A DNA stretch of 64,000 nt from Escherichia coli (GCF_030013595.1 NZ_CP122771.1), one strand, 5' to 3'; positions 1,429-34,080 are shown, counted from the stretch's first letter. Notes: generated by a model not told the origin, from the letters alone. A program made the numbers and translations.

Positions 1429-2005
1429 TATGTCACTCCGTCAGATATGCCATGCCACCCGGTATGTTGTTGCCCGAGTCCTGTGTTGGTTGTTCTGGTG
1501 TCTGAAATACGCCGTCATTCTGCCGCTGGCCACAATGGCTCTGCTGGCGTTACTGGTTTTATGGAAGGACAACACCACACCGGGGAAATTGCTGGTTCAG
1601 GAGATCGAGTTTGTAAGGGGCAGAACGCCAGCCGGGCTGTATCCGGTCCGATACTGCTCGAACAGTTTTGGTTCCGATTTAGCGATGCCTCCGTCTGTAA
1701 CGTGCGGTTTTCGCCGGGGGGATGCTGCAGAATATGCCAGGGAGACTGACCAGTCTCTGATGCAACTGTTCACCGCATTATGGGCAACGCTGGCACTGAT
1801 GTATGTCTCGCTGGCGGTGATCTCCGGAAAATGTCCGATGCGACCCGGAAAAATGAAATGTGTCCGGGTCGCAACTTCAGATGAACATCTGAAGGAAGTT
1901 CTTACGGAAGATGCTTCCCTGCCGGAAAAAATCAGGAAATGCCATGTTTATTTCCCTGATGACCGAACAAACAGAAGCAACGGAGATAAAAATGAACATG
2001 CGTAA
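1418..2005 (+). CDS. traP: TraP, pilus stabilisation membrane protein
   Basis: 195-aa ORF starting MANNMSLRQICHATRYV, matching F TraP; start overlaps traB stop. Confidence 0.85.
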   Translation: MANNMSLRQICHATRYVVARVLCWLFWCLKYAVILPLATMALLALLVLWKDNTTPGKLLVQEIEFVRGRTPAGLYPVRYCSNSFGSDLAMPPSVTCGFRRGDAAEYARETDQSLMQLFTALWATLALMYVSLAVISGKCPMRPGKMKCVRVATSDEHLKEVLTEDASLPEKIRKCHVYFPDDRTNRSNGDKNEHA

Positions 2006-2312
2006 TATTAATGTTATTACTGCCCGCGCTGTGCCGGATAAAAACGTATCAGATGATTTTATGCATGCTGTTTTCAGTAACTGCACCACAAGAATCGCAC
2101 TTCCTGCGCCGAAGAAATTCAGTTCTGAATCATTGCCGCACAATTTTAATATGGCTGCTGTCGGAGTGATGAAGAAGGGTATGTCGATGAGTTTATTTTC
2201 TTCTCCGGGGAATACAGTAGTCTCCGGACAACCCTGTGCAGGAAAAACAAATCTGAAAGCAGAGTTAATTTCTGCTGTTGTGGGGAGTAATAAAAAAGGA
2301 GAAAGTCAATGA
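1944..2312 (+). CDS. trbD: TrbD (ORF may also cover the trbG coding region)
   Basis: ORF starting MFISLMTEQTEATEIK between traP and traV, as in F; exact trbD/trbG partition not resolvable by eye. Confidence 0.5.
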   Translation: MFISLMTEQTEATEIKMNMRNINVITARAVPDKNVSDDFMHAVFSNCTTRIALPAPKKFSSESLPHNFNMAAVGVMKKGMSMSLFSSPGNTVVSGQPCAGKTNLKAELISAVVGSNKKGESQ

Positions 2313-2824
2313 AACAGATTTCTTTATTTATTCCTCTGCTGGGGACCTTATTACTTTCCGGCTGTGCCGGAACCAGTACGGAATTTGAGTGTAACGCCAC
2401 CACATCCGATACCTGTATGACGATGGAGCAGGCCAATGAGAAGGCCAAAAAACTGGAGCAGTCCTCAGAAGCAAAGCCGGTTGCGGTATCACTGCCGCGC
2501 CTGGCTGAAGGGAACTTCCGGACAATGCCGGTGCAGACCGTTACCGCGACCACTCCGTCCGGCAGCAGACCTGCGGTGACAGCACATCCGGAGCAGAAAC
2601 TGCTGGCACCACGCCCGCTGTTTACCGCTGCCCGGGAAGTGAAAACGGTTGTTCCGGTCAGTTCAGTTACGCCGGTAACACCTCCTCGTCCGCTAAGAAC
2701 GGGTGAGCAGACGGCAGCATTATGGATAGCGCCTTATATTGATAACCAGGATGTTTATCATCAGCCATCCAGCGTGTTTTTTGTTATTAAACCGTCTGCG
2801 TGGGGAAAACCACGTATTAATTAA
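2309..2824 (+). CDS. traV: TraV, outer-membrane lipoprotein of T4SS core
   Basis: 171 aa; lipoprotein signal with lipobox LLLSGCAG; synteny. Confidence 0.9.
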   Translation: MKQISLFIPLLGTLLLSGCAGTSTEFECNATTSDTCMTMEQANEKAKKLEQSSEAKPVAVSLPRLAEGNFRTMPVQTVTATTPSGSRPAVTAHPEQKLLAPRPLFTAAREVKTVVPVSSVTPVTPPRPLRTGEQTAALWIAPYIDNQDVYHQPSSVFFVIKPSAWGKPRIN

Positions 2825-2958
2825 CTGGCCCTGAAGTTGTATATCAGCCGGCAATGCCGGCGGGCTTTCTGTATTCAAAATCTGCCTGTAAAACGAGTGC
2901 CCTGTGCGTGAAAAGGGATGGGCGGTAGCGTGTCAGAACATGTCGGGAGGAATATTCC

Positions 2959-3180
2959 GTGAGTGATGAAGCCGATGAAGCATATTCAGTGACAGAACAA
3001 CTGACCATGACAGGAATAAACCGGATACGCCAGAAAATAAATGCTCATGGTATTCCTGTTTATCTCTGTGAAGCATGCGGAAATCCTATTCCGGAAGCCC
3101 GGCGGAAAATATTTCCCGGTGTGATGTTATGTGTTGAATGTCAGGCGTATCAGGAAAGACAGAGAAAACATTATGCATAA
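2959..3180 (+). CDS. traR: TraR, DksA/TraR-family zinc-finger protein
   Basis: 73 aa, GTG start; C4 motif CEACGN...CVEC; position between traV and traC. Confidence 0.9.
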   Translation: MSDEADEAYSVTEQLTMTGINRIRQKINAHGIPVYLCEACGNPIPEARRKIFPGVMLCVECQAYQERQRKHYA

Positions 3181-3339
3181 GTCAGTCGCAGAACATAGTG
3201 ATTTAATTCCGGATGAACATGAGTGGATATTCAGAAAACAGAAATCTTTGTATATGCGCCGGGAAATGGCGCGTTAATTACAGGTATTCCCTTCATGGCT
3301 ACCGCATTTCTCGCTTTATTTTTCAACTAAGGAATTCAT

Positions 3340-5967
3340 GTGAATAACCCACTTGAGGCCGTCACTCAGGCGGTTAACTCCCTCGTCACAGCACTGAAAC
3401 TGCCTGACGAATCCGCAAAGGCCAATGAAGTTCTGGGCGAAATGAGCTTCCCGCAGTTCAGCCGTCTGCTGCCGTACCGTGATTATAACCAGGAATCCGG
3501 TCTGTTCATGAATGACACCACGATGGGCTTTATGCTGGAAGCCATTCCCATCAATGGGGCGAATGAGTCTATTGTGGAGGCGCTCGACCACATGCTGCGC
3601 ACCAAACTGCCGCGCGGAGTGCCGTTCTGCATCCATCTGATGTCCAGTCAGCTTGTTGGTGACAGAATTGAATACGGGCTGCGTGAGTTCTCCTGGTCCG
3701 GTGAACAGGCTGAACGGTTTAACGCCATTACCCGTGCCTATTATATGAACGCGGCAGCGACACAGTTTCCGCTGCCGGAGGGGATGAATCTGCCCCTGAC
3801 CCTGCGCCATTACCGGGTATTCTTCTCGTACTGTTCTCCCTCGAAGAAAAAAAGCCGGGCTGACATTCTGGAAATGGAAAACCTGGTGAAAATCATCCGG
3901 GCGTCGTTACAGGGGGCCAGTATCACCACACAGGCGGTGGATGCACAGGCCTTTATCGATATTGTCGGGGAGATGATTAACCATAACCCGGACTCCCTGT
4001 ATCCGAAAAGACGTCAGCTGGACCCGTATTCTGATCTGAATTATCAGTGTGTGGAGGACAGTTTTGACCTGAAAGTCCGGGCGGATTACCTGACGCTGGG
4101 CCTGCGTGAGAACGGCAGGAACAGCACGGCCCGCATCCTGAATTTCCATCTGGCCCGTAACCCGGAAATCGCCTTTCTGTGGAACATGGCCGACAACTAC
4201 AGCAACCTGCTGAACCCGGAACTGTCCATCTCCTGTCCGTTCATCCTGACGCTGACTCTGGTGGTGGAAGACCAGGTGAAAACTCACAGCGAAGCCAACC
4301 TGAAGTACATGGACCTGGAGAAAAAGTCGAAGACCTCCTATGCCAAATGGTTTCCGTCCGTGGAGAAAGAGGCGAAGGAGTGGGGGGAACTGCGTCAGCG
4401 GCTGGGCTCCGGTCAGTCCTCTGTCGTGTCCTACTTCCTCAACATCACAGCATTCTGCAAGGACAATAATGAAACGGCGCTGGAAGTGGAGCAGGACATC
4501 CTGAACAGCTTCCGTAAAAACGGTTTTGAGCTGATTTCACCGCGCTTTAACCACATGCGCAATTTCCTGACCTGTCTGCCCTTTATGGCCGGGAAAGGGT
4601 TGTTTAAACAGCTGAAAGAGGCCGGAGTGGTACAGCGCGCAGAGAGCTTTAATGTGGCCAACCTGATGCCGTTAGTGGCGGATAACCCCCTGACACCGGC
4701 AGGTCTGCTGGCACCCACCTACCGTAACCAGCTGGCGTTTATCGATATTTTCTTCCGGGGGATGAATAACACCAACTACAACATGGCGGTCTGTGGCACC
4801 TCCGGGGCCGGTAAAACCGGGCTGATACAGCCACTTATCCGCAGCGTGCTGGACTCCGGGGGCTTTGCCGTGGTGTTCGACATGGGGGATGGCTACAAGT
4901 CCCTGTGTGAGAACATGGGCGGGGTGTATCTGGACGGTGAAACCCTGCGTTTTAACCCGTTTGCGAACATCACCGATATTGACCAGTCAGCGGAGCGTGT
5001 CCGCGACCAGTTGTCGGTGATGGCCAGCCCCAACGGTAACCTGGATGAAGTGCATGAAGGTCTGCTGCTGCAGGCGGTCAGGGCCTCCTGGCTGGCTAAA
5101 AAGAATAAGGCGCGCATCGATGATGTGGTGGATTTCCTGAAAAACGCCCGTGATAACGACCAGTATGTAGAGTCACCGACTATCCGCAGCCGTCTGGACG
5201 AAATGATTGTGCTGCTTGACCAGTACACTGCTAACGGCACTTATGGCCAGTATTTCAACTCCGATGAGCCGTCCCTGCGGGATGATGCGAAAATGGTGGT
5301 GCTGGAGCTGGGCGGACTGGAAGACCGTCCGTCCCTGCTGGTTGCGGTGATGTTCAGCCTTATCATTTACATTGAGAACCGGATGTACCGCACGCCGCGT
5401 AACCTCAAGAAACTGAACGTTATTGATGAAGGCTGGCGTCTGCTGGACTTCAAAAATCACAAGGTCGGTGAATTTATTGAGAAAGGCTACCGTACGGCCC
5501 GCCGTCATACCGGTGCCTATATCACCATCACACAGAACATCGTCGACTTTGACTCTGATAAGGCCTCCAGTGCTGCCCGCGCGGCATGGGGTAACTCCTC
5601 CTACAAAATTATCCTCAAACAGAGTGCGAAGGAGTTCGCGAAATACAACCAGCTGTATCCGGACCAGTTCCTGCCACTGCAGCGCGACATGATTGGTAAG
5701 TTTGGTGCAGCCAAAGACCAGTGGTTCAGTTCCTTCCTGCTGCAGGTGGAAAACCATTCCTCCTGGCACCGTCTGTTTGTGGACCCGTTAAGCCGCGCCA
5801 TGTACAGCTCTGACGGCCCGGATTTTGAGTTTGTGCAGCAGAAGCGTAAAGAGGGGCTGAGTATTCATGAGGCAGTGTGGCAGCTGGCGTGGAAGAAGTC
5901 AGGGCCGGAGATGGCTTCGCTGGAAGCCTGGCTGGAAGAACATGAGAAATACAGGAGTGTGGCATGA
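3340..5967 (+). CDS. traC: TraC, VirB4-like T4SS ATPase
   Basis: 875 aa, GTG start; Walker A GTSGAGKTG; synteny. Confidence 0.95.
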   Translation: MNNPLEAVTQAVNSLVTALKLPDESAKANEVLGEMSFPQFSRLLPYRDYNQESGLFMNDTTMGFMLEAIPINGANESIVEALDHMLRTKLPRGVPFCIHLMSSQLVGDRIEYGLREFSWSGEQAERFNAITRAYYMNAAATQFPLPEGMNLPLTLRHYRVFFSYCSPSKKKSRADILEMENLVKIIRASLQGASITTQAVDAQAFIDIVGEMINHNPDSLYPKRRQLDPYSDLNYQCVEDSFDLKVRADYLTLGLRENGRNSTARILNFHLARNPEIAFLWNMADNYSNLLNPELSISCPFILTLTLVVEDQVKTHSEANLKYMDLEKKSKTSYAKWFPSVEKEAKEWGELRQRLGSGQSSVVSYFLNITAFCKDNNETALEVEQDILNSFRKNGFELISPRFNHMRNFLTCLPFMAGKGLFKQLKEAGVVQRAESFNVANLMPLVADNPLTPAGLLAPTYRNQLAFIDIFFRGMNNTNYNMAVCGTSGAGKTGLIQPLIRSVLDSGGFAVVFDMGDGYKSLCENMGGVYLDGETLRFNPFANITDIDQSAERVRDQLSVMASPNGNLDEVHEGLLLQAVRASWLAKKNKARIDDVVDFLKNARDNDQYVESPTIRSRLDEMIVLLDQYTANGTYGQYFNSDEPSLRDDAKMVVLELGGLEDRPSLLVAVMFSLIIYIENRMYRTPRNLKKLNVIDEGWRLLDFKNHKVGEFIEKGYRTARRHTGAYITITQNIVDFDSDKASSAARAAWGNSSYKIILKQSAKEFAKYNQLYPDQFLPLQRDMIGKFGAAKDQWFSSFLLQVENHSSWHRLFVDPLSRAMYSSDGPDFEFVQQKRKEGLSIHEAVWQLAWKKSGPEMASLEAWLEEHEKYRSVA

Positions 5968-21146: not shown

Positions 21147-23372
21147 ATGAGTTTTAACGCAAAGGATATGACCCAGGGCGGTCAGATTGCGTCCATGCGT
21201 ATCCGCATGTTCAGCCAGATCGCCAATATCATGCTTTACTGCCTGTTTATTTTTTTCTGGATACTCGTTGGTCTGATTTTATGGGTAAAAATAAGCTGGC
21301 AGACGTTTGTGAACGGCTGTATTTACTGGTGGTGTACCACGCTGGAAGGCATGCGGGATTTAATCAAGTCCCAGCCAGTATATGAGATCCAGTATTACGG
21401 CAAAACCTTCCGGATGAACGCGGCTCAGGTACTGCATGATAAATACATGATCTGGTGCGGTGAGCAGCTATGGTCCGCATTCGTTCTGGCGTCTGTCGTG
21501 GCCCTGGTTATTTGCCTGATTACCTTCTTTGTTGTTTCCTGGATTCTGGGGCGTCAGGGTAAACAACAGAGCGAAAATGAAGTCACAGGTGGTCGTCAGC
21601 TGACAGACAATCCGAAAGATGTTGCCCGGATGCTGAAAAAAGACGGCAAGGACTCCGATATCCGGATTGGCGACCTGCCGATTATCCGAGATTCCGAAAT
21701 CCAGAACTTCTGTCTGCACGGCACAGTCGGGGCCGGTAAGTCGGAGGTTATCCGTCGTCTGGCCAACTACGCCCGTAAGCGTGGTGATATGGTGGTGATT
21801 TATGACCGTTCAGGGGAATTTGTTAAAAGTTACTATGATCCCTCCATCGATAAAATCCTGAATCCGCTGGATGCCCGCTGTGCCGCATGGGATTTGTGGA
21901 AGGAGTGCCTGACACAGCCGGATTTTGATAATACCGCGAACACGCTGATCCCTATGGGTACAAAAGAGGACCCGTTCTGGCAGGGGTCAGGACGTACCAT
22001 TTTTGCGGAAGCGGCGTACCTGATGCGTAATGACCCCAACCGCAGCTACAGCAAACTGGTGGACACACTGCTTTCCATCAAAATCGAAAAACTGCGTACC
22101 TTCCTGCGTAATTCACCGGCAGCCAACCTGGTGGAAGAGAAAATTGAGAAAACGGCGATTTCCATCCGTGCTGTGCTGACCAACTACGTGAAAGCCATCC
22201 GTTACCTGCAGGGGATTGAGCATAACGGTGAGTCTTTTACCATCCGTGACTGGATGCGTGGTGTCCGGGAAGATCAGAAAAACGGCTGGCTGTTTATCTC
22301 GTCGAATGCCGACACCCATGCCTCCCTGAAGCCGGTGATCTCCATGTGGCTGTCCATTGCCATTCGTGGTCTGCTGGCAATGGGAGAAAACCGTAATCGT
22401 CGTGTGTGGTTTTTCTGTGACGAGTTACCCACGTTACACAAACTGCCGGACCTGGTGGAGATCCTGCCGGAAGCCCGTAAGTTCGGTGGCTGTTATGTGT
22501 TTGGTATCCAGTCCTATGCCCAGCTGGAAGATATCTACGGTGAGAAAGCGGCGGCCACGCTGTTTGACGTCATGAACACCCGTGCCTTTTTCCGTTCTCC
22601 CAGCCATAAGATTGCAGAGTTCGCTGCCGGTGAAATTGGTGAGAAAGAGCACCTGAAAGCCAGCGAGCAGTATTCCTACGGTGCTGACCCGGTACGTGAC
22701 GGGGTATCGACCGGTAAGGATATGGAGCGTCAGACGCTGGTCAGTTATTCCGACATTCAGTCTCTGCCGGATCTGACCTGTTATGTCACTCTGCCCGGAC
22801 CGTATCCGGCAGTCAAACTCTCTCTGAAATATCAGGCACGTCCGAAGGTTGCCCCGGAGTTTATTCCGCGTGACATCAACCCGGAAATGGAGAACCGTCT
22901 GAGTGCCGTACTTGCCGCAAGGGAAGCAGAAGGTCGCCAGATGGCCAGCCTCTTCGAACCGGAGGTTGCCTCCGGAGAAGGCGTGACTCAGGCTGAACAG
23001 CCACAACAGCCACAACAGCCACAACAGCCACAACAGCCACAACAGCCACAACAGCCACAACAGCCACAACAGCCACAACAGCCACAACAGCCAGTGTCTT
23101 CTGTCATCAATGATAAGAAGTCAGATGCAGGTGTGAGTGTTCCGGCAGGGGGGATCGAGCAGGAGCTGAAAATGAAACCGGAAGAAGAGATGGAACAGCA
23201 ACTGCCACCCGGGATCAGTGAATCCGGTGAAGTGGTGGATATGGCCGCTTATGAGGCATGGCAACAGGAAAATCATCCGGACATCCAGCAGCATATGCAG
23301 CGTCGTGAAGAGGTGAACATTAATGTACACCGGGAGCGCGGGGAGGATGTTGAGCCGGGAGATGATTTCTGA
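21147..23372 (+). CDS. traD: TraD, type IV coupling protein
   Basis: 741 aa; N-terminal TM helices; Walker [10 protein letters not shown]; C-terminal QQP repeat tract. Confidence 0.95.
22998..23093 (+). repeat. 9-bp tandem repeat (cagccacaa, about 10 units) encoding the (QPQ)n tract of TraD
   Basis: Direct reading of the sequence. Confidence 0.9.
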
Positions 23373-26300
23373 TGTTGAGTTTCAGCGTTGTTAAATCGGC
23401 AGGCAGTGCCGGAAACTATTACACCGACAAGGATAATTACTATGTGCTGGGCAGCATGGGAGAACGCTGGGCTGGTCAGGGGGCTGAACAGCTTGGGCTG
23501 CAGGGCAGCGTCGATAAGGATGTTTTTACCCGTCTTCTGGAGGGCAGGCTGCCGGACGGAGCGGATTTAAGCCGCATGCAGGATGGCAGTAATAAGCATC
23601 GTCCCGGCTACGACCTGACCTTCTCCGCCCCCAAAAGTGTCTCCATGATGGCCATGCTCGGGGGGGATAAACGTCTTATTGATGCACATAACCAGGCCGT
23701 GGATTTTGCTGTCCGTCAGGTGGAGGCGCTGGCTTCCACACGGGTGATGACGGACGGACAGTCAGAAACGGTGCTGACCGGTAATCTGGTGATGGCACTG
23801 TTTAACCATGACACCAGTCGCGATCAGGACCCACAGTTACACACGCATGTGGTGGTGGCTAATGTCACGCAGCATAATGGCGAGTGGAAGACACTGAGCA
23901 GTGACAAAGTGGGGAAAACCGGATTTTCCGAGAACGTGCTCGCGAACCGGATTGCGTTCGGGAAAATATATCAGAGTGAGTTACGTCAGCGCGTTGAGGC
24001 GCTGGGTTATGAAACCGAAGTGGTCGGTAAGCACGGTATGTGGGAGATGCCGGGCGTACCGGTGGAGGCCTTTTCCAGTCGTTCACAGGCTATCAGGGAG
24101 GCCGTCGGTGAAGACGCCTCGCTGAAATCCCGGGATGTGGCGGCGCTGGATACGCGTAAATCCAAACAGCACGTCGATCCGGAAATCAGAATGGCTGAAT
24201 GGATGCAGACGCTGAAGGAAACCGGGTTCGACATCCGGGCATATCGTGACGCGGCGGATCAGCGTGCGGAGATCCGCACGCTGACGCCCGGGCCTGCTTC
24301 ACAGGACGGGCCGGATGTGCAGCAGGCGGTGACACAGGCGATTGCCGGATTAAGTGAACGAAAAGTGCAGTTCACGTACACGGACGTGCTGGCCAGAACG
24401 GTCGGCATACTGCCGCCGGAAAATGGTGTGATTGAACGGGCACGCGCCGGTATCGATGAGGCCATCAGCCGTGAGCAGCTTATCCCCCTCGACCGTGAGA
24501 AGGGGCTGTTCACGTCCGGGATTCATGTGCTCGATGAGCTGTCAGTCCGGGCACTCAGTCGTGACATCATGAAACAGAACCGGGTGACCGTACATCCGGA
24601 GAAAAGTGTTCCCCGGACGGCCGGTTACAGCGATGCCGTCAGCGTGCTGGCACAGGATCGCCCGTCGCTGGCCATTGTGTCCGGGCAGGGCGGTGCAGCC
24701 GGGCAGCGTGAGCGGGTGGCTGAACTGGTCATGATGGCCCGGGAGCAGGGGCGGGAGGTGCAGATTATCGCTGCTGACCGTCGCTCGCAGATGAACATGA
24801 AGCAGGATGAGCGTCTGTCCGGTGAGCTGATAACCGGGCGGCGTCAGCTGCTGGAGGGCATGACCTTCACGCCGGGCAGTACCGTTATCGTCGACCAGGG
24901 CGAAAAACTCTCCCTGAAAGAGACGTTAACTCTGCTGGACGGTGCCGCACGGCATAACGTACAGGTCCTGATAATCGACAGCGGGCAGCGGACCGGTACC
25001 GGCAGTGCGCTGATGGCCATGAAGGATGCCGGAGTGAACACATATCGCTGGCAGGGGGGAGAACAGCGACCGGCAACCATCATCAGTGAACCGGACCGTA
25101 ATGTCCGCTATGCCCGGCTGGCCGGAGATTTTGCGGTCAGCGTGAAAGCCGGAGAAGAGAGCGTGGCGCAGGTCAGTGGAGTACGGGAACAGGCCATGCT
25201 GACTCAGACCATTCGCAGTGAGCTGAAAACACAGGGCGTACTCGGACATCCGGAGGTGACCATGACCGCGCTGTCACCGGTCTGGCTGGACAGCCGGAGT
25301 CGTTATCTGCGGGATATGTACCGCCCGGGGATGGTGATGGAGCAGTGGAACCCGGAGACACGCAGTCATGACCGCTATGTGATAGACCGGGTGACGGCGC
25401 AGAGTCACAGCCTGACCCTGCGGGATGCGCAGGGCGAAACGCAGGTGGTGCGTATTTCCTCCCTGGACAGCAGCTGGTCGCTGTTCCGGCCGGAAAAAAT
25501 GCCGGTGGCAGACGGCGAGCGACTGAGGGTGACCGGGAAAATTCCCGGACTCCGAGTCTCCGGCGGTGACCGCCTGCAGGTGGCATCCGTCAGTGAAGAT
25601 GTGATGACGGTTGTTGTGCCGGGGCGGGCTGAACCGGCCTCCCTGCCTGTGAGCGATTCACCGTTCACGGCACTGAAGCTGGAGAATGGCTGGGTGGAAA
25701 CGCCCGGGCATTCCGTCAGCGACAGTGCGAAGGTTTTTGCCTCCGTCACACAGATGGCAATGGACAAGGCCACCCTGAACGGTCTGGCCCGCAGTGGTCG
25801 TGATGTCCGGCTGTATTCCTCACTGGATGAAACCCGTACTGCGGAAAAACTTGCCCGCCATCCGTCCTTTACGGTGGTTTCTGAGCAGATAAAGGCGCGG
25901 GCCGGTGAGACATCGCTGGAAACGGCTATCAGTCATCAGAAGTCCGCACTTAACACACCGGCACAGCAGGCCATTCATCTTGCCCTTCCGGTGGTGGAAA
26001 GTAAAAACCTGGCCTTCAGCCATGTGGACCTGCTGACAGAGGCAAAGTCGTTTGCTGCAGAAGGAACCAGTTTTGCTGACCTGGGGCGGGAAATCAATGC
26101 GCAGATAAAACGCGGTGACTTACTGTATGTGGATGTGGCAAAAGGCTATGGCACAGGCCTGCTGGTTTCCCGTGCGTCGTATGAGGCAGAAAAGAGCATT
26201 CTTCGCCATATTCTCGAAGGTAAGGAGGCGGTCACGCCGCTGATGGAGAGAGTACCTGGCGAACTCATGGAGAAACTGACATCAGGACAGCGTGCCGCCA

Positions 26301-28642
26301 CCCGCATGATACTGGAAACGTCCGACCGTTTCACGGTGGTGCAGGGCTATGCCGGTGTGGGTAAGACCACACAGTTCCGGGCGGTGATGTCAGCCGTGAA
26401 CATGCTGCCGGAGAGTGAGCGTCCCCGTGTCGTTGGGCTGGGCCCCACGCACCGTGCGGTCGGGGAGATGCGCAGCGCCGGCGTGGATGCACAGACACTG
26501 GCGTCCTTTCTGCATGACACGCAGCTGCAGCAGCGCAGCGGAGAAACGCCGGATTTCAGCAACACGCTGTTTCTGCTCGATGAGAGCTCAATGGTGGGCA
26601 ATACCGACATGGCACGGGCATACGCCCTGATTGCGGCCGGTGGTGGTCGTGCCGTGGCCAGCGGTGACACGGACCAGCTGCAGGCCATCGCGCCCGGTCA
26701 GCCTTTCCGTCTCCAGCAGACGCGCAGTGCTGCCGATGTGGTCATCATGAAGGAGATTGTGCGCCAGACGCCGGAGCTGCGGGAGGCGGTATACAGCCTG
26801 ATTAACCGGGATGTGGAAAGGGCACTGTCCGGGCTTGAGAGTGTGAAACCGTCTCAGGTGCCACGTCAGGAGGGCGCATGGGTACCGGAGCACTCCGTGA
26901 CGGAGTTCAGTCACAGCCAGGAAGCGAAACTGGCAGAAGCGCAGCAGAAGGCGATGCTGAAAGGTGAGGCTTTTCCGGATATTCCCATGACACTGTATGA
27001 AGCCATTGTCCGCGATTATACCGGCAGGACGCCGGAAGCACGGGAGCAGACGCTGATTGTCACGCATCTGAATGAGGACCGGCGCGTACTGAACAGCATG
27101 ATTCATGATGCACGGGAAAAGGCCGGTGAGCTGGGAAAAGAGCAGGTCATGGTGCCTGTCCTGAACACAGCGAATATACGCGACGGGGAGTTGCGTCGTC
27201 TCTCCACCTGGGAGACACATCGGGACGCACTTGCCCTGGTGGATAATGTGTATCACCGGATTGCCGGTATCAGCAAGGATGACGGGCTGATAACTCTGCA
27301 GGATGCGGAAGGTAACACGCGGCTGATTTCGCCCCGGGAGGCGGTGGCTGAAGGCGTCACACTGTACACTCCGGACACCATCCGGGTGGGAACCGGTGAC
27401 CGGATGCGCTTCACGAAGAGTGACCGGGAGCGCGGTTATGTGGCCAACAGCGTCTGGACGGTGACAGCGGTTTCCGGTGACAGTGTCACGCTGTCGGACG
27501 GACAGCAGACCCGGGTGATTCGCCCCGCCCAGGAGCAGGCAGAGCAACATATTGACCTGGCCTATGCCATCACCGCCCACGGTGCGCAGGGGGCGAGTGA
27601 AACCTTTGCCATTGCGCTTGAAGGCACGGAAGGTAACCGGAAACTGATGGCCGGCTTTGAGTCAGCCTACGTGGCCCTGTCGCGTATGAAGCAGCATGTG
27701 CAGGTGTACACCGATAATCGTCAGGGCTGGACGGATGCCATTAACAATGCCGTACAGAAAGGAACTGCCCACGATGTGCTGGAGCCGAAACCGGACCGGG
27801 AGGTCATGAATGCAGAGCGGCTGTTCAGTACGGCGCGGGAGCTGCGGGACGTGGCGGCAGGGCGTGCCGTTCTTCGTCAGGCGGGGCTTGCCGGGGGAGA
27901 CAGTCCTGCACGGTTTATTGCACCGGGACGTAAATATCCACAGCCGTATGTGGCACTGCCGGCGTTTGACCGTAACGGCAAATCAGCCGGTATCTGGCTG
28001 AACCCGCTGACCTCGGATGACGGAAACGGGCTGCGGGGATTCAGCGGTGAAGGCCGTGTGAAAGGCAGCGGGGATGCGCAGTTCGTGGCCCTGCAGGGCA
28101 GCCGTAACGGAGAAAGCCTGCTGGCTGATAATATGCAGGAGGGTGTCCGGATTGCCCGTGATAATCCTGACAGCGGTGTGGTGGTAAGAATCGCCGGTGA
28201 AGGCCGTCCGTGGAATCCCGGTGCCATCACCGGTGGCCGCGTGTGGGGGGATATCCCGGACAACAGCGTCCAGCCGGGAGCCGGAAATGGCGAGCCGGTC
28301 ACGGCAGAGGTACTGGCACAGCGGCAGGCTGAAGAGGCCATCCGCCGTGAAACGGAACGCCGTGCGGATGAAATTGTCCGTAAAATGGCAGAGAACAAAC
28401 CTGACCTGCCGGATGGCAAAACAGAGCAGGCTGTCAGGGAGATTGCCGGGCAGGAGCGTGACCGGGCTGCCATAACTGAACGGGAAGCCGCGCTGCCGGA
28501 GAGTGTGCTGCGTGAATCACAACGGGAGCGGGAAGCGGTCCGGGAGGTTGCCCGGGAAAATCTGCTGCAGGAGCGTCTGCAGCAGATGGAGCGGGATATG
28601 GTTCGTGACCTGCAGAAAGAGAAAACCCTGGGCGGAGACTGA
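23372..28642 (+). CDS. traI: TraI, relaxase/DNA helicase I
   Basis: 1756 aa; N-terminal relaxase with HxH motif (HTHVV) and C-terminal helicase with P-loop (GYAGVGKTT). Confidence 0.95.
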   Translation: MLSFSVVKSAGSAGNYYTDKDNYYVLGSMGERWAGQGAEQLGLQGSVDKDVFTRLLEGRLPDGADLSRMQDGSNKHRPGYDLTFSAPKSVSMMAMLGGDKRLIDAHNQAVDFAVRQVEALASTRVMTDGQSETVLTGNLVMALFNHDTSRDQDPQLHTHVVVANVTQHNGEWKTLSSDKVGKTGFSENVLANRIAFGKIYQSELRQRVEALGYETEVVGKHGMWEMPGVPVEAFSSRSQAIREAVGEDASLKSRDVAALDTRKSKQHVDPEIRMAEWMQTLKETGFDIRAYRDAADQRAEIRTLTPGPASQDGPDVQQAVTQAIAGLSERKVQFTYTDVLARTVGILPPENGVIERARAGIDEAISREQLIPLDREKGLFTSGIHVLDELSVRALSRDIMKQNRVTVHPEKSVPRTAGYSDAVSVLAQDRPSLAIVSGQGGAAGQRERVAELVMMAREQGREVQIIAADRRSQMNMKQDERLSGELITGRRQLLEGMTFTPGSTVIVDQGEKLSLKETLTLLDGAARHNVQVLIIDSGQRTGTGSALMAMKDAGVNTYRWQGGEQRPATIISEPDRNVRYARLAGDFAVSVKAGEESVAQVSGVREQAMLTQTIRSELKTQGVLGHPEVTMTALSPVWLDSRSRYLRDMYRPGMVMEQWNPETRSHDRYVIDRVTAQSHSLTLRDAQGETQVVRISSLDSSWSLFRPEKMPVADGERLRVTGKIPGLRVSGGDRLQVASVSEDVMTVVVPGRAEPASLPVSDSPFTALKLENGWVETPGHSVSDSAKVFASVTQMAMDKATLNGLARSGRDVRLYSSLDETRTAEKLARHPSFTVVSEQIKARAGETSLETAISHQKSALNTPAQQAIHLALPVVESKNLAFSHVDLLTEAKSFAAEGTSFADLGREINAQIKRGDLLYVDVAKGYGTGLLVSRASYEAEKSILRHILEGKEAVTPLMERVPGELMEKLTSGQRAATRMILETSDRFTVVQGYAGVGKTTQFRAVMSAVNMLPESERPRVVGLGPTHRAVGEMRSAGVDAQTLASFLHDTQLQQRSGETPDFSNTLFLLDESSMVGNTDMARAYALIAAGGGRAVASGDTDQLQAIAPGQPFRLQQTRSAADVVIMKEIVRQTPELREAVYSLINRDVERALSGLESVKPSQVPRQEGAWVPEHSVTEFSHSQEAKLAEAQQKAMLKGEAFPDIPMTLYEAIVRDYTGRTPEAREQTLIVTHLNEDRRVLNSMIHDAREKAGELGKEQVMVPVLNTANIRDGELRRLSTWETHRDALALVDNVYHRIAGISKDDGLITLQDAEGNTRLISPREAVAEGVTLYTPDTIRVGTGDRMRFTKSDRERGYVANSVWTVTAVSGDSVTLSDGQQTRVIRPAQEQAEQHIDLAYAITAHGAQGASETFAIALEGTEGNRKLMAGFESAYVALSRMKQHVQVYTDNRQGWTDAINNAVQKGTAHDVLEPKPDREVMNAERLFSTARELRDVAAGRAVLRQAGLAGGDSPARFIAPGRKYPQPYVALPAFDRNGKSAGIWLNPLTSDDGNGLRGFSGEGRVKGSGDAQFVALQGSRNGESLLADNMQEGVRIARDNPDSGVVVRIAGEGRPWNPGAITGGRVWGDIPDNSVQPGAGNGEPVTAEVLAQRQAEEAIRRETERRADEIVRKMAENKPDLPDGKTEQAVREIAGQERDRAAITEREAALPESVLRESQREREAVREVARENLLQERLQQMERDMVRDLQKEKTLGGD

Positions 28643-28661: not shown

Positions 28662-29408
28662 ATGACAACGGATAACACGAACACGACACGTAACGATTCA
28701 CTGGCTGCCCGGACCGATACCTGGTTGCAGTCGTTTCTGGTCTGGTCACCCGGACAGCGGGATATCATCAAAACGGTGGCACTGGTGCTGATGGTACTGG
28801 ACCACATCAATCTGATATTCCAGCTGAAGCAGGAATGGATGTTTCTGGCCGGGCGTGGAGCCTTTCCGCTGTTTGCCCTGGTGTGGGGGCTGAATCTGTC
28901 CCGTCATGCGCATATCCGGCAACCGGCCATTAACCGGCTGTGGGGATGGGGGATTATTGCCCAGTTCGCATATTATCTGGCAGGCTTTCCCTGGTATGAG
29001 GGGAATATCCTGTTTGCCTTTGCAGTGGCGGCACAGGTGCTGACGTGGTGTGAAACGCGCAGTGGGTGGCGTACAGCAGCGGCCATTCTTCTGATGGCGC
29101 TGTGGGGGCCTTTGTCCGGCACCAGTTACGGCATTGCCGGGCTGCTGATGCTGGCAGTCAGCCACCGGCTGTACCGGGCGGAAGACAGAGCGGAACGTCT
29201 GGCGCTGGTCGCCTGCCTGCTGGCTGTTATTCCGGCGCTTAACCTTGCCACCAGTGATGCAGCGGCGGTGGCCGGTCTTGTGATGACGGTGCTGACCGTT
29301 GGTCTGGTGTCGTGTGCAGGAAAATCATTACCCCGTTTCTGGCCCGGGGATTTTTTCCCGGTATTCTACGCCTGTCATCTGGCTGTGCTGGGCGTTCTGG
29401 CGCTGTGA
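28662..29408 (+). CDS. traX: TraX, pilin N-acetylase
   Basis: ATG at 28662 (MTTDNTNTTRNDSLAAR...); polytopic membrane protein; synteny. Confidence 0.85.
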   Translation: MTTDNTNTTRNDSLAARTDTWLQSFLVWSPGQRDIIKTVALVLMVLDHINLIFQLKQEWMFLAGRGAFPLFALVWGLNLSRHAHIRQPAINRLWGWGIIAQFAYYLAGFPWYEGNILFAFAVAAQVLTWCETRSGWRTAAAILLMALWGPLSGTSYGIAGLLMLAVSHRLYRAEDRAERLALVACLLAVIPALNLATSDAAAVAGLVMTVLTVGLVSCAGKSLPRFWPGDFFPVFYACHLAVLGVLAL

Positions 29409-29462: not shown

Positions 29463-30023
29463 ATGACAGAGCAGAAGCGACCGGTACTGACACTGAAGCG
29501 GAAAACGGAAGGGGAGACGCCTGTCCGCAGGCGGAAAACCATCATCAATGTCACCACGCCACCAAAGTGGAAGGTGAAAAAGCAGAAGCTGGCCGAGAAA
29601 GCAGCCCGGGAAGCAGAGCTGGCGGCAAAAAAAGCGCAGGCCAGACAGGCACTGTCCATTTATCTGAATCTGCCCACGCTGGATGAGGCCGTGAATACCC
29701 TGAAACCCTGGTGGCCGGGATTGTTTGACGGTGACACGCCCCGGCTTCTGGCCTGCGGTATCCGGGACGTGTTACTGGAAGACGTGGCGCAGCGGAATAT
29801 CCCGCTCTCGCATAAAAAACTGCGCAGGGCGCTGAAGGCCATCACCCGTTCAGAAAGCTATCTGTGTGCCATGAAAGCCGGTGCCTGCCGGTATGACACG
29901 GAAGGGTATGTGACGGAGCATATTTCTCAGGAGGAGGAAGCGTATGCGGCAGCGCGTCTGGATAAAATCCGCCGCCAGAACCGGATAAAGGCAGAACTTC
30001 AGGCCGTGCTTGATGAGAAATAA
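29463..30023 (+). CDS. finO: FinO, fertility-inhibition RNA chaperone (apparently intact)
   Basis: 186 aa, basic N-terminus; matches R100 FinO; uninterrupted. Confidence 0.9.
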
Positions 30024-30145: not shown

Positions 30146-30367
30146 GTGATAAAGATGAATGGATTCAGAAACAGTTCACGGAACGGTCAGGTCTGGTGCT
30201 GGCAGCGTGCCGGAAGCCGGGCCGTTATTCTGGAAGTCAGTGGTCGCTGGATGGAAGCGGCAGAAGCATGGCGACGGGCTGCCAGTGTTGCACCCCGGAC
30301 AGACTGGCAGCAGTTTGCCCGAAAAAGGGCTGAACACTGCCACCGGCGCTGCCGGGGAAGGGTGTAA
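30146..30367 (+). CDS. Hypothetical small basic protein
   Basis: 73-aa ORF downstream of finO; coding status uncertain. Confidence 0.3.
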   Translation: MIKMNGFRNSSRNGQVWCWQRAGSRAVILEVSGRWMEAAEAWRRAASVAPRTDWQQFARKRAEHCHRRCRGRV

Positions 30368-30653
30368 CGAAAAAAGCAGCCTTCATTACTCCAGGTATTC
30401 AGAAGGCTGAATAATGCATGAGATTTTTCTTTTTTATATCTGGCCTGGCAGTATGACCAGTCAGCAGTCATTATCACAGGATTATTGCTGTATTAAGTAA
30501 TAGCGTGCTGTTTTGTGATTGATTTCATAAAACAAGACGTCGTTTAATATGCGCCTGAATATTCACGAGGGAAGTCTTTCTTTTTATATGGTGCTCCCGG
30601 AAATAAAATATTTTTTGTTATTGCTCACCCTGTTATGAATAAAAGGTAAAAAC

Positions 30654-31331
30654 ATGGAAGAAAATAATACGAGTACAGATAAAAACACCCTGACAGCCCT
30701 TATTGATTATGAAAACTGTGGCAGCCTGAAAAATATTTCCCTTGAGCAGTATGGGGAACTGATTATTTTTGTCGGGCCACAGCAGAACGTCGTTGTTCTT
30801 CCTGCAGACTCTTTTCCTGAAGGTGCGAGAATCACTATCAGGCAGGTGAGTGGTGTGTCCAGGAATAATGTCGATTTTCATCTTGTTCTGGAGCTGGGGC
30901 GGATAAGCTGTTGTGCAGCAGGGAAAGATAAAACATACCACATCATTTCATCGGATAAGGGATATGACGGTGTTATCAGGACGCTGAAAGAAGCCGGTAT
31001 TACCTGCATTCGTCGTGATGTACCGGAAAGTATTGCTGCTGCCGGTGAGTCTGGTGCAGACAAAAGTAACTGCCTGAAACAACCTTCTGTTCCTGAAAGT
31101 GATATCGTCAGCCGTTGGGCAGGAAAGCTGCAGCAGATAGCCGGCAGCGGAGCCGGTAATATGCCTGTGTCCGTCGAAACATTTAATAATTATTTAAAGT
31201 CACACATGCGTGACGAATGGAACAAAACCCGGGCAGTGGCGATAAGGAATGAACTGGTTCGTCGGGGAGTCACAGAAGTCAGGGAGAAAAAGATAATCTG
31301 GAAAAAGGCGAAAAAGGAGAATAAAGCATGA
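30654..31331 (+). CDS. NYN/PIN-like (LabA-type) nuclease-fold protein
   Basis: 225 aa; N-terminal IDYENC and later SSDKGYDGVIRTLKEAG resemble NYN signature positions; AT-rich promoter region upstream. Confidence 0.5.
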   Translation: MEENNTSTDKNTLTALIDYENCGSLKNISLEQYGELIIFVGPQQNVVVLPADSFPEGARITIRQVSGVSRNNVDFHLVLELGRISCCAAGKDKTYHIISSDKGYDGVIRTLKEAGITCIRRDVPESIAAAGESGADKSNCLKQPSVPESDIVSRWAGKLQQIAGSGAGNMPVSVETFNNYLKSHMRDEWNKTRAVAIRNELVRRGVTEVREKKIIWKKAKKENKA

Positions 31332-31647
31332 GGTATCGCAGCTGTGCTCAGATAAAAACAGCCCCCGTTGCGGTTGCGGAGCGAAGGGGGCTGAAAAGGG
31401 GAATTAAGGATGATTGTTATTATGGTGAACCAGAAGGTTATCCCTGTCTGTAAGCTGAATCGGACTAAACGACATAATACCTGTAACATCACTGAAACAT
31501 CAGCGGTATATGTGGTGTGTATGAATATCCCGGCAGCATTAATTCTTCTGTGAGGAAATGCATTGATAAGAAACAGAATAAGTCGGTGGTAAGGAAAATG
31601 AATTTATTAATTCAGTATCCGTTTATCAGATAAAAAAGGGAAAGAGT

Positions 31648-32241
31648 ATGGTGAAACTGATTATTTTTATTCTCATTGTTCTGATTATTGCAGCGTTACT
31701 TATCCGGATTATCCTCAGAAGTGTAAATCAGCATTCTCCTTTGCTGATGCAATTGCATGCGGCAGGTATACGGACCGGTGATGCAGAGCGAATACTGTCC
31801 AGCGGTGAATACTGGCAACGTCAGAAGACGCTGCTGACAGAAAGGGAAGTCAGTTTTATGAAAGGACTGTTCAGAATTGTGGATATGAAGCGGTGGTATC
31901 TGTGTCCGCAGGTACGGGTCGCGGATATCGTCCAGCTGAACGAGAATATCCGGCCACGATCACGCCAGTGGTGGCAGTTATTCAGAATGGTGTCTCAGTG
32001 GCATGTTGATGTGGTTATCGTTGAGCGGCGTTCGTTCAGTATTGTTGCAGCAGTAGAGCTGGATGATGCCAGCCATTTACGACCGGAACGCAGACGCCGG
32101 GATATTCTTCTGGAAGAGGTTCTGAGGCAGGCTGGTATTCCGTTGCTCAGAAGCCACGATGCCAGAAAACTGCTGCAGATGACCGGAGAATGGCTGAATA
32201 CAACAGGGGCTGATCAGCAGTCCCCGGAACATCGTAGCTGA
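31648..32241 (+). CDS. Membrane-anchored DUF2726-like (restriction-endonuclease-fold) protein
   Basis: 197 aa; N-terminal TM helix; HVDVVIVER...AVELDD resembles a PD-(D/E)xK-type core. Confidence 0.5.
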   Translation: MVKLIIFILIVLIIAALLIRIILRSVNQHSPLLMQLHAAGIRTGDAERILSSGEYWQRQKTLLTEREVSFMKGLFRIVDMKRWYLCPQVRVADIVQLNENIRPRSRQWWQLFRMVSQWHVDVVIVERRSFSIVAAVELDDASHLRPERRRRDILLEEVLRQAGIPLLRSHDARKLLQMTGEWLNTTGADQQSPEHRS

Positions 32242-32312
32242 CGCCTTCGCGTTGCTCAGTTGTCCAACCCCGGGAGCGGGAAAAAGCAAGTTTTCCCCGC
32301 TCCCGGCGTTTC
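32239..32312. repeat. Conserved hairpin-containing intergenic motif, copy 2
   Basis: Shares flanks with 20193-20252; perfect stem ccgggagcggg/cccgctcccgg; partial third copy (gacgccttcg) at 32889-32898. Confidence 0.6.
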
Positions 32313-32395
32313 TGTAATAAAAAACGGGAAATGGTGGTCACAGAGTAAATGCCGGAACCACCTGTACCCAAACTTTATATAATAATGGTGAATAT

Positions 32396-32860
32396 ATGAA
32401 ATATGATGATGTATCAGAATTGATGATTAAGCGTGAACACAATATTCTTATTATGGGGAATTCTGCCTCCCACATTGATAAATTTTTTAAGGGATATTCT
32501 ATACCAGGTTCTAAATATTATGATTTCACTCAGATTAACAGTGATTCAGATGTAGAGAGAAATGAGCATGCTGTCTCATTTATCAGGGATGCAATGAATA
32601 GTGAAGAGCACACAATCATTTTTAATTGTGTTGGGTGGCATGATTTAGGTGGTGGATCAGCAGTATCACAGTTTGCAATGATGGTCAGAAAATTTGGTAA
32701 ACAACTTATTGTCGCTGTAAGTGAAAAGGATGCCATCAAATTAAAAGATAACTTTAATATTATTGGAACGTTGTCATATGGTAAAGAAAATTTTATTGCC
32801 ATGAGTCATACGAAAAGCGAGTTAACTGGAGGGAAATGTCGGTACCGGATTAAAAATTGA
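32396..32860 (+). CDS. Hypothetical protein, degenerate-P-loop paralog of ORF 7994-8455
   Basis: 154 aa; aligns with 7994-8455 product (ELM, ILI.G, YY.F..NS, TLILDGV/TIIFNCVG, KRLVVVA/KQLIVAV) but Walker A replaced by GNSASHIDK; AT-rich. Confidence 0.45.
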   Translation: MKYDDVSELMIKREHNILIMGNSASHIDKFFKGYSIPGSKYYDFTQINSDSDVERNEHAVSFIRDAMNSEEHTIIFNCVGWHDLGGGSAVSQFAMMVRKFGKQLIVAVSEKDAIKLKDNFNIIGTLSYGKENFIAMSHTKSELTGGKCRYRIKN

Positions 32861-33116
32861 TGTAAATAAAAAGCATACTTATTGGCTGGAGTGACGCCTT
32901 CGTGCTTCTGTAGTAAAAAGCGGGAAAGGCAGGTAATAGTCAGCAACAGGGAATGTGGTATTATCGCGGCGGGTGTCTGAGCCTTTCTGGTTCAGGCAAG
33001 ACGCAGGTACCAGAAATGCGAAGACCCCACTCGTTAATCCATTAACTCGTGAGGCCTGCATGAAGTACCTTAACACTACTGATTGTAGCCTCTTCCTTGC
33101 AGAGAGGTCAAAGTTT

Positions 33117-33266
33117 ATGACGAAATATGCCCTTATCGGGTTGCTCGCCGTGTGCGCCACGGTGTTGTGTTTTTCACTGATATTCAGGGAACGGTTATGT
33201 GAGCTGAATATTTACAGGGGAAATACAGTGGTGCAGGTAACTCTGGCCTACGAAGCACGGAAGTAA
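33117..33266 (+). CDS. srnB: Hok-family type I toxin (SrnB/PndA-like)
   Basis: 50-aa peptide MTKYALIGLLAVCATVLCFSLIFRERLCELNIYRGNTVVQVTLAYEARK; overlapping upstream leader ORF analogous to mok. Confidence 0.8.
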   Translation: MTKYALIGLLAVCATVLCFSLIFRERLCELNIYRGNTVVQVTLAYEARK

Positions 33267-33549: not shown

Positions 33550-33798
33550 ATGTCGCAGACAGAAAATGCAGTGACTTCCTCATCAGGTACAAAGCGAGCA
33601 TACAGAAAAGGTAATCCTCTGACGCTTGCAGAACGTCAGCAGGCATCCCTGGCAAGAAAACGAGCTACACATAAAGAACTCAGAGTGTTCATTCCTGCTG
33701 CGTTAAAAGCGCAATTGCAGGTGATGTGTGAAGCTGAGGGCGTTACCCAGGCTGAGATGATTGCCGAACTGATAAAGCAGAAGAGTGCTTTTAGCTAA
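33550..33798 (+). CDS. copB: CopB/RepA2 repressor of the RepFIIA replicon
   Basis: 82 aa starting [11 protein letters not shown], similar to R1 CopB; directly upstream of repA1. Confidence 0.85.
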
Positions 33799-33984
33799 CT
33801 AAAATGTAGCGACATCACATTCTTGCCTGTTTCTGGTGTGCGTGATAGATTGCTGATCGTTTAAGGAATTTTGTGGCTGGCCACGCCGTAAGGTGGCAGG
33901 GAACTGGTTCTGATGTGGATTTACAGGAGCCAGAAAAGCGAAAACCCCGATAATCTTTCTATGTTTGGCGACGAAGAAGATTAC

Positions 33985-34080
33985 CGGGGCCATCTAAAAA
34001 CCGTATAGCCAACAATTCAGCTATGCGGGGAGTATAGTTATATGCCCGGAAAAGTTCAAGACTTCTTTCTGTGCTCACTC
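33985..34080 (-). ncRNA. copA: CopA antisense RNA region (approximate)
   Basis: Position between copB and repA1 where CopA/CopT lies in IncFII replicons; boundaries not determined. Confidence 0.3.

Follow-up and report, generated by a model that had tools for sequence, protein, structure and literature searches.

The window, a 64,000-nucleotide stretch of Escherichia coli DNA (GCF_030013595.1, NZ_CP122771.1), comes from an IncF plasmid. Read along the + strand, the region studied here comprises traI, traX, finO, a small ANR-like ORF, a PIN7-family gene, a spacer, a DUF2726 gene, a 154-aa ORF, hok/sok, repA2/copB, the CopA RNA and repA1. The first-pass annotation had singled out two ORFs with predicted nuclease folds downstream of finO; both ORFs, and the motifs quoted from them, were found exactly where it had put them, and their location relative to finO is borne out. 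The features of the region are:

23372-28642, + strand: traI
ending at 29408, + strand: traX
29463..30023, + strand: finO, an ORF annotated as FinO fertility inhibition protein in the near-identical plasmid pEC581_4
30146..30367, + strand: small ANR-like ORF (NCBIfam ANR_neg_reg, 30.4 bits against a cut-off of 32)
30264..30447, - strand: AS-pc02, a known plasmid antisense RNA (Rfam RF02876, 190.6 bits, E = 3.8e-50)
30654..31331, + strand: PIN7-family gene, 225 aa
31332..31647: spacer of 316 bp that belongs to the PIN cassette alone, defined from the sequence
31648..32241, + strand: DUF2726 gene, the plasmid 'yihA', 197 aa
32268..32306, + strand: strong GC-rich hairpin, followed by GUUUCUGU (MFE -43.2 kcal/mol, z = -3.4)
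32396..32860, + strand: 154-aa low-GC ORF (GC ~34%), annotated as a hypothetical protein
32971..33266, + strand: hok/sok-type type I toxin-antitoxin locus (Rfam sok, 98.2 bits; Hok/Gef annotation)
33550..33798, + strand: repA2/copB (ORF and annotation), marking the slot on its right side and beginning the IncFII replicon
33936-34024, - strand: CopA RNA (Rfam)

With finO the transfer region ends, and this gene marks the left side of an accessory slot. The ANR-like ORF, whose RefSeq start corresponds to position 30155 and whose homolog in R100 bears the annotation ANR family regulator, forms the left boundary of a swappable cassette; the left flank is homologous between plasmids of the PIN type and those of the thermonuclease type. 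AS-pc02 overlaps the 3' end of this ORF. At the right edge of the slot, the stability of the hairpin at 32268..32306 was equalled in 0 of 200 shuffles, and this element is probably a terminator or an insulator; positions 32238-32339 are kept at 85-92% in plasmids that carry a different upstream gene. The 154-aa ORF belongs to the same variable slot in the plasmid lineage of the window and gave nothing significant in Pfam, NCBIfam, PADLOC or PHROGs. The hok/sok locus is made up of a sok RNA model match at 32971-33127 and a Hok ORF at 33117-33266. The best database match was CP122741.1 (99.9% identity across 4.2 kb), and the E. coli O26:H11 plasmid NC_013362.1 carries the two genes with 100% identity to the window.

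The 316-bp spacer is common to the window and pGUE-NDM, but not to p1ESCUM. A GC-rich hairpin lies within it at about 31359-31393, and a T-run follows on the minus strand only. This hairpin was considered as a small RNA or terminator and rejected, its z of only about -1.7 to -1.8 being not significant and Rfam giving no match. No + strand terminator was predicted between the PIN7 and DUF2726 genes, and a consensus promoter scan, which returned 5 sites against 6.6 expected, placed none ahead of either gene; the two may therefore be co-transcribed here.

Domain architecture of the two proteins

The ORF at 30654-31331 had been read as NYN/PIN-like and that at 31648-32241 as a membrane-anchored protein with a PD-(D/E)xK-like core. 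Both readings hold, and the profile searches proposed as a check matched PIN7 and DUF2726, respectively. The 225-aa protein covers the whole PIN7 profile (PF18475 in Pfam; model positions 1-103 of 103, residues 16-115, E = 6.7e-18), which places it in the PIN7 family of the PIN-like superfamily. Because a family-profile sequence search of solved structures gave nothing credible for either protein, a fold search was used. An AlphaFold model of the PIN7 protein was built from a 24-sequence alignment (pLDDT 82), and the structure search returned the MARF1 NYN domain as its top fold match. The protein consists of a NYN-type PIN alpha/beta domain (residues 13-121, nt 30690-31016), a disordered and hypervariable linker (residues 122-147), and a winged-helix domain of three helices and a beta-hairpin (residues 148-216, nt 31095-31301). 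D18, E20, D74, D101 and D105 are invariant across the aligned homologs and correspond to the acidic metal-site residues of the NYN type on the PIN/NYN alpha/beta fold. An OST-HTH/LOTUS identity was considered for the C-terminal domain and set aside, as no such membership was detectable.

For the PIN7 protein, the AFDB50 search gave 353 matches at E <= 0.001; the 50 listed carry, with few exceptions, no name beyond 'PIN-like domain-containing' and are spread over many Proteobacteria and other phyla. In a library of 1.84 billion proteins, 616 clusters at 50% identity match. The gene itself appears in RefSeq as WP_000392235.1, a PIN domain-containing protein. Biochemical data on PIN7 members were looked for and none came to light, and literature searches for 'PIN7' or PF18475 returned only papers on plant auxin carriers.

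The 197-aa protein matches DUF2726 (PF10881) over residues 60-171 with E = 1.3e-21, which assigns it to the PD-(D/E)xK clan. Pfam reported only DUF2726 and MTES_1575 for it, PHROGs gave only a weak match of unknown function, and RefSeq describes identical proteins as DUF2726 domain-containing. A hydrophobic, single-pass transmembrane helix is predicted at residues 2-26 (nt 31651-31725), and residues 60-171 (nt 31825-32160) constitute a nuclease core of the Vsr/DUF559 type. H119, D121, E137, D139, D140, H143 and R151-D152 are invariant across homologs, and the restriction-endonuclease-like core thus shows the conserved D ... E-x-D ... H and R-D motifs of a Vsr/DUF559-like fold. In 19 of 20 DUF2726 homologs with an intact N-terminus, 3-6 Lys/Arg residues follow the helix and 0-1 precede it; the window's own protein shows only a weak charge bias, having one Lys/Arg before the helix and one after it. 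Applied to the bias of the homologs, the positive-inside rule predicts that the nuclease domain faces the cytoplasm and the short N-terminus the periplasm.

IncF annotations call this gene 'yihA', and it has been misidentified twice in the literature: it has been confused with the chromosomal GTPase YihA/EngB (PMC4794485) and annotated as a helicase of superfamily I (PMC2762410). A 102-aa protein (phrog_1372) and a 214-230 aa multi-TM protein accompany DUF2726 in Klebsiella IncFIIK plasmids and in L021, an environmental F-like plasmid. They were considered as conserved partners of DUF2726 and rejected, since the window has no homolog of either. In an Enterobacter plasmid, the 102-aa protein lies next to an unrelated 180-aa ORF, of which the window likewise has no homolog.

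Distribution, exchange and decay of the two genes

The DUF2726 gene matched 3370 plasmids at the nucleotide level and at least 5000 at the protein level, and among the best 5000 matches 4150 lie on plasmids typed as conjugative. A nucleotide-level search of 5426 complete E. coli genomes matched it in 2579 (48%), nearly always on plasmids; 1805 of these 2579 genomes, or 33% of all complete E. coli genomes, hold a copy that covers at least 80% of the gene. The PIN allele of the window is far less common (254 plasmids; 228 of the 5426 genomes), and the contiguous PIN-DUF2726 junction was found in 72 of 72,556 plasmids. Full-length PIN homologs at 33-57% identity are present in about 2900 further plasmids, chiefly from Klebsiella, and the family as a whole in 3146 plasmids, usually right after finO.

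The arrangements in which the genes occur vary widely:

R100 and pJJ1886_5: finO-ANR-thermonuclease-hha-DUF2726-repA2, with no PIN-family gene
Klebsiella IncFIIK: finO, PIN, 214-aa membrane protein, DUF2726, 102-aa protein, PLD nuclease
p1ESCUM: a 57%-identical PIN allele immediately 5' of DUF2726
pKPN50105-1, p12367A and pCE33-1, three plasmids from three genera: finO, ANR, a 53%-identical PIN allele, 110-aa ORF, hok, repA2, without DUF2726
one Klebsiella plasmid: a type I restriction-modification gene next after PIN
an IncHI1B plasmid: a lone PIN gene in another context, without DUF2726
L021: a frameshifted PIN homolog 3' of DUF2726 with four genes between, the order being reversed

For three distant PIN7 homologs, found in a Piscinibacter genome and in metagenomes, no DUF2726 gene lies alongside, and the F plasmid carries neither gene. 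DUF2726 lies between traI/traX/finO and repA2 in R100, pJJ1886_5, p1ESCUM, Klebsiella IncFIIK, Enterobacter and environmental plasmids, as a backbone gene would, whereas the PIN family behaves only partly in this way, being present in 3146 plasmids yet in none of the R100 type. The first-pass annotation had left undecided whether the genes are backbone or cargo. The answer differs between them: DUF2726 is a conserved gene of the backbone slot, and PIN is a variable cassette from a family that is old in F-like plasmids. It had also named an outcome that would defeat a defence reading, namely that both are ubiquitous IncF backbone genes with an established non-defence role; ubiquity was found for DUF2726, and an established non-defence role for neither gene.

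Comparison with canonical IncFII plasmids showed that homology to the window breaks at the DUF2726 start codon, 4 nt in, and resumes leftward in the ANR region. Therefore, the PIN gene and thermonuclease + hha are alternative cassettes of one slot; the PIN gene is one of at least two such cassettes, and thermonuclease + hha is the common alternative. pGUE-NDM is a tandem mosaic that contains both: ANR, PIN, the first 28 nt of DUF2726, a second ANR, thermonuclease, hha and a full DUF2726. Protein identities to the window were as follows:

Klebsiella IncFIIK (L007): TraX 52%, FinO 45%, PIN 40%, DUF2726 55%
pKPN50105-1 (L005): TraX 99.6%, FinO 100%, PIN 54%, DUF2726 absent
p1ESCUM (L006): TraX 89%, FinO 99%, PIN 57%, DUF2726 91%

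Relative to Klebsiella IncFIIK, PIN and DUF2726 have diverged about as much as the backbone, so both families seem to be old residents of the site. Among E. coli plasmids, by comparison, backbones with 99-100% identical FinO carry PIN alleles that are 54-57% and DUF2726 proteins that are 91-98% identical. When E. coli PIN alleles are set against one another, identity is 7-15% in the linker, 52-65% in the NYN core and 46-79% in the winged helix, and the catalytic residues are constant. The divergence of PIN alleles around constant catalytic residues, set beside the 91-98% identity of DUF2726, indicates that PIN behaves as a reassorting, diversifying cassette and DUF2726 as a backbone gene. Both families share the slot in four diverged F-like lineages (the window type, p1ESCUM, Klebsiella IncFIIK and L021). 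Because they co-reside in these lineages and diverge in step with TraX and FinO, the PIN7 and DUF2726 proteins may cooperate in trans.

Decay is frequent. In about 30% of the E. coli genomes matched by DUF2726 the copy is only partial, and IS insertions, chimeric ORFs and truncations are common. Moreover, a natural in-frame deletion that fuses PIN residues 1-101 to DUF2726 residues 100-197 was found in 18 contigs, the plasmids that bear it reading finO - ANR - fusion - repA2. The partial copies, the IS insertions and the circulating fusion count against both an addiction function and an essential part in transfer or replication. Both genes are dispensable for F-type transfer and replication.

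Explanations for the two nucleases

Taken together, the data are explained best, and with fair probability in our judgement, by two independent accessory nucleases that occupy a variable finO-repA2 slot and form no functional pair, with the mechanisms outlined below. The genomic independence of the genes is held with much more confidence than these mechanisms. Their side-by-side placement is an accident of cassette arrangement and does not constitute a new two-gene toxin/defence system.

The first-pass annotation had suggested that the adjacency could mark a toxin/defence pair or an RNA-processing module, and this part of its reading is not supported. A single functional module, whether a toxin/defence pair or joint nucleic-acid processing in which, for example, both nucleases act on invaders, now appears very unlikely. 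The genes do adjoin on the same strand in the window and, with the 57%-identical PIN allele, in p1ESCUM, the finO-repA2 interval of Klebsiella IncFIIK and of the environmental F-like plasmid has members of both families, both diverge in step with the backbone, and no + strand terminator is predicted between them. However, each gene is common without the other, and order, spacing and intervening genes vary; a 316-bp gap with no overlap separates them, and the exact junction is confined to 72 plasmids. Their divergence rates on identical backbones are very unequal, the three sampled contexts of distant PIN7 homologs have no DUF2726 nearby, PADLOC recognised nothing, and a deletion that fuses and truncates both genes persists in nature. 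The location between finO, an RNA chaperone gene, and the copB/CopA control region would instead fit a housekeeping role, in which the NYN-winged-helix protein processes FinP/traJ and CopA/repA mRNA and the membrane nuclease acts on plasmid DNA during conjugative transfer or establishment. The position is kept in F-like plasmids of Escherichia, Klebsiella, Enterobacter and environmental samples, and the prevalence of conjugative-typed plasmids among the best DUF2726 matches and the backbone-like divergence agree with such a role. Nevertheless, we consider it unlikely: F, which has neither gene, transfers and replicates, thermonuclease + hha replaces the PIN gene in most IncFII plasmids, partial DUF2726 copies are frequent, and PIN alleles differ by over 40% where FinO is identical and RepA2 97.6% identical, which is at odds with a conserved RNA target.

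PIN domains are the classic toxins of plasmid toxin-antitoxin systems, hok/sok also lies in the region, and an untethered nuclease could be toxic, as is SNIPE (described below) without its membrane helix; one or both proteins, such as a VapC-like PIN, might thus kill plasmid-free cells. We give this addiction reading scarcely any credence, since the domain is of the NYN type with a winged helix and not a VapC of ~130 aa, no small antitoxin gene adjoins or overlaps it, no small ORF is conserved with the different alleles, and the genes tolerate truncations, IS insertions and the deletion fusion, all of them common. It is also highly improbable that the genes are functionless, decaying remnants that hitch-hike in a recombination-prone region. 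Partial copies are frequent, F dispenses with both genes, and homologous yihA-region genes were expressed at a low level in the pBIC1a transcriptome (table values 11-35; PMC6286996), but the frames are intact, every predicted catalytic residue stays the same over a range of 25-55% identity, and the position has outlasted the split between the F-like plasmids of Escherichia and those of Klebsiella.

Returning to two independent accessory nucleases, the conserved Vsr/DUF559-type active site, the conserved anchor and the predicted cytoplasmic orientation point to the DUF2726 protein being a membrane-held, Mg2+-dependent DNA endonuclease or nickase at the inner membrane. The tether would keep the nuclease off the nucleoid and its own plasmid, and would place it on the route by which foreign DNA, whether from phages, rival plasmids or transformation, passes through the inner membrane. 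The PIN7 protein would be a metal-dependent endoribonuclease whose winged helix picks the substrate. Either gene may have a role in conflict between mobile elements. Depending on the lineage, nucleases of four unrelated families (NYN, Vsr-like, staphylococcal-nuclease-like and PLD-like) occupy the slot, which is suggestive of a conflict-related locus. A point against a conflict role is that DUF2726 is kept like a backbone gene and is not patchy like typical defence cargo, and PADLOC gave no match. A more specific proposal, which we regard as rather a long shot, is that the 'YihA' DUF2726 protein is a minimal SNIPE-like device that cuts incoming DNA and protects the hosts of F-like plasmids, about half of sequenced E. 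coli strains, from some phages or rival plasmids, the slot offering a rotating set of nucleases (NYN-winged-helix, thermonuclease, PLD-type) for conflicts between mobile elements.

Both genes are already annotated in RefSeq and are known, at the level of family assignment, as ordinary plasmid content. The interest of the locus lies in the gene for a membrane-anchored, Vsr-like nuclease that holds a fixed place in at least 5000 F-like plasmids and in nearly half of the complete E. coli genomes; searches of the accessible literature, including papers on DUF2726, found no experimental work on it or on the PIN7 gene. If the slot nucleases restrict phages or competing plasmids, this would bear on the competition and persistence of the main antibiotic-resistance plasmids of Enterobacteriaceae.

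Comparison with known systems

A search for defence systems, which had been proposed together with the pairing, recognised neither protein: no PADLOC-DB v2 family matched either of them or the two neighbouring ORFs at E <= 1, and NCBIfam gave no useful assignment for either protein. The PIN7 protein has the PIN-like superfamily and carriage on plasmids in common with VapC toxins, but it belongs to the NYN branch, has 225 aa and a winged helix, and lacks a cognate antitoxin gene; the ORF next upstream is ANR-like and stops 286 bp short of the gene, unlike a VapBC arrangement, and no conserved small partner ORF was seen across the contexts of the PIN alleles. Another parallel is the PIN-(OST-HTH) architecture, which has been predicted to act as a standalone RNA-degradation system (PMC5499597). 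The NYN + LOTUS layout of MARF1 and its relatives is mirrored by the NYN core and winged helix of the window's protein, although its C-terminal domain is not detectably OST-HTH.

The DUF2726 protein is related in fold to Vsr, DUF559 and I-Bth0305I and adds to them an N-terminal membrane anchor and about 35 additional residues ahead of the core. Vsr is linked to a cytosine methyltransferase and I-Bth0305I to an intron, whereas the DUF2726 gene is linked to neither; no dcm-like cytosine-5 methyltransferase was present in the slot of any plasmid examined, as a Vsr repair system would call for. SNIPE is an experimentally studied, membrane-bound GIY-YIG nuclease with an N-out transmembrane helix and a cytoplasmic nuclease domain; it cuts phage DNA during injection, and without the helix it is toxic and attacks host DNA (10.1101/2025.11.03.685801). 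The DUF2726 protein is predicted to have the same topology, an analogy and not a membership, and this likeness suggests that it may share the logic of SNIPE in telling self from non-self by location. Given the topology of SNIPE and its toxicity without the helix, tethering as self-protection is a reasonable model. Their nuclease folds are unrelated: SNIPE has the GIY-YIG fold and DUF4041, whereas the DUF2726 protein has a Vsr-like PD-(D/E)xK core and is far smaller, with neither DUF4041 nor GIY-YIG matched in Pfam.

At the level of the whole locus, the nearest known counterpart is the finO-repA2 region of R100-type plasmids. Its flanks and DUF2726 are common to the window, at 97-98% protein identity. 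Where that region has thermonuclease + hha, the window has the PIN7 gene, with the 154-aa ORF and hok/sok added after DUF2726, and the window is an allelic version of the R100-type region.

Mosaics and fusions of the slot genes

The variable slot between finO and repA2 can carry the PIN gene (PIN7 family) or, as a common alternative, the thermonuclease and hha genes, and in pGUE-NDM both alleles stand in tandem. This mosaic shows that a PIN-type plasmid has recombined with an R100-type one. Its order runs ANR, PIN, a 274-bp insert, a 28-nt DUF2726 stub, a second ANR copy, thermonuclease, hha and a full DUF2726 gene.

Comparison locus L002 (pGUE-NDM, NC_019089.1), 1902-5770: tandem mosaic of both slot alleles
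Comparison loci L023, 1858-2454, and L024, 1857-2453: PIN::DUF2726 fusion (protein P0012)

The fusion arose by a natural in-frame deletion that joins PIN residues 1-101 to DUF2726 residues 100-197; the resulting 198-aa protein contains both Pfam domains and is carried by 18 contigs. Further chimeras include a thermonuclease::DUF2726 protein (P0070), and IS-derived sequence is also a fusion partner (P0089).

RNA elements and hairpins around the slot

Window 30264-30447, minus strand: AS-pc02 antisense RNA (antisense to pHK01_099)
Window 31359-31393, T-run on the minus strand only: GC-rich hairpin directly 3' of the PIN stop codon
Window 32268-32306, plus strand: very stable GC-rich hairpin inside the conserved stretch 32238-32339
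Window 32396-32860, plus strand: 154-aa ORF (GC ~34%) between the DUF2726 gene and hok/sok

The AS-pc02 match is full-length in Rfam (190.6 bits) and overlaps, at its 3' end, the ANR-like ORF that precedes the PIN gene; terminator-like hairpins also lie on the minus strand at 30092-30077 and 30049-30030. A minus-strand transcript could end at hairpin 31359-31393, which has no match in Rfam and a stability that is not significant (z ~ -1.7 to -1.8).

Hairpin 32268-32306 follows the DUF2726 stop codon at once, and the 110-nt stretch containing it folds at -43.2 kcal/mol (z = -3.4). Stretch 32238-32339 is 85-92% conserved where the upstream gene differs (L005, pKPN50105-1) or has strongly diverged (L007, Klebsiella IncFIIK). 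The hairpin probably serves as a terminator or insulator, or marks a recombination boundary of the variable slot.

The 154-aa ORF, whose sequence is also carried by p1ESCUM, has no significant match in Pfam, NCBIfam, PADLOC or PHROGs. One motif in it, GWHDLGGGS, loosely resembles nucleotide-binding loops.

Relatives and companions of the slot genes

Comparison loci L010, 5488-6597; L011, 5168-6277; L012, 273-1382: distant PIN7 homolog P0060
Comparison loci L007, 4650-6305; L018, 6830-8581; L021, 6727-8774; L025, 3150-5460: DUF2726 with companion genes

P0060 starts 4 bp downstream of an eCIS_core (PF13699) gene, and a ParE/RHH toxin-antitoxin pair adjoins it; eCIS_core and P0060 possibly form a unit of two genes that has no relation to the plasmid context.

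Two papers misname the DUF2726 gene of the plasmids: PMC4794485 takes it for the cell-division GTPase YihA, and PMC2762410 labels it "Superfamily I DNA/RNA helicase". Both names are annotation-transfer errors.

The window lacks the 102-aa protein (phrog_1372), PLD-family nuclease and 214-230-aa multi-TM protein that are found with DUF2726 elsewhere. The first two, of which the 102-aa protein is conserved (59-81% identity between lineages), accompany DUF2726 in F-like plasmids from Klebsiella, Enterobacter and environmental samples, and the multi-TM protein is additional in the Klebsiella and environmental plasmids. In Klebsiella, the 102-aa protein gene and the DUF2726 gene overlap by 4 bp.
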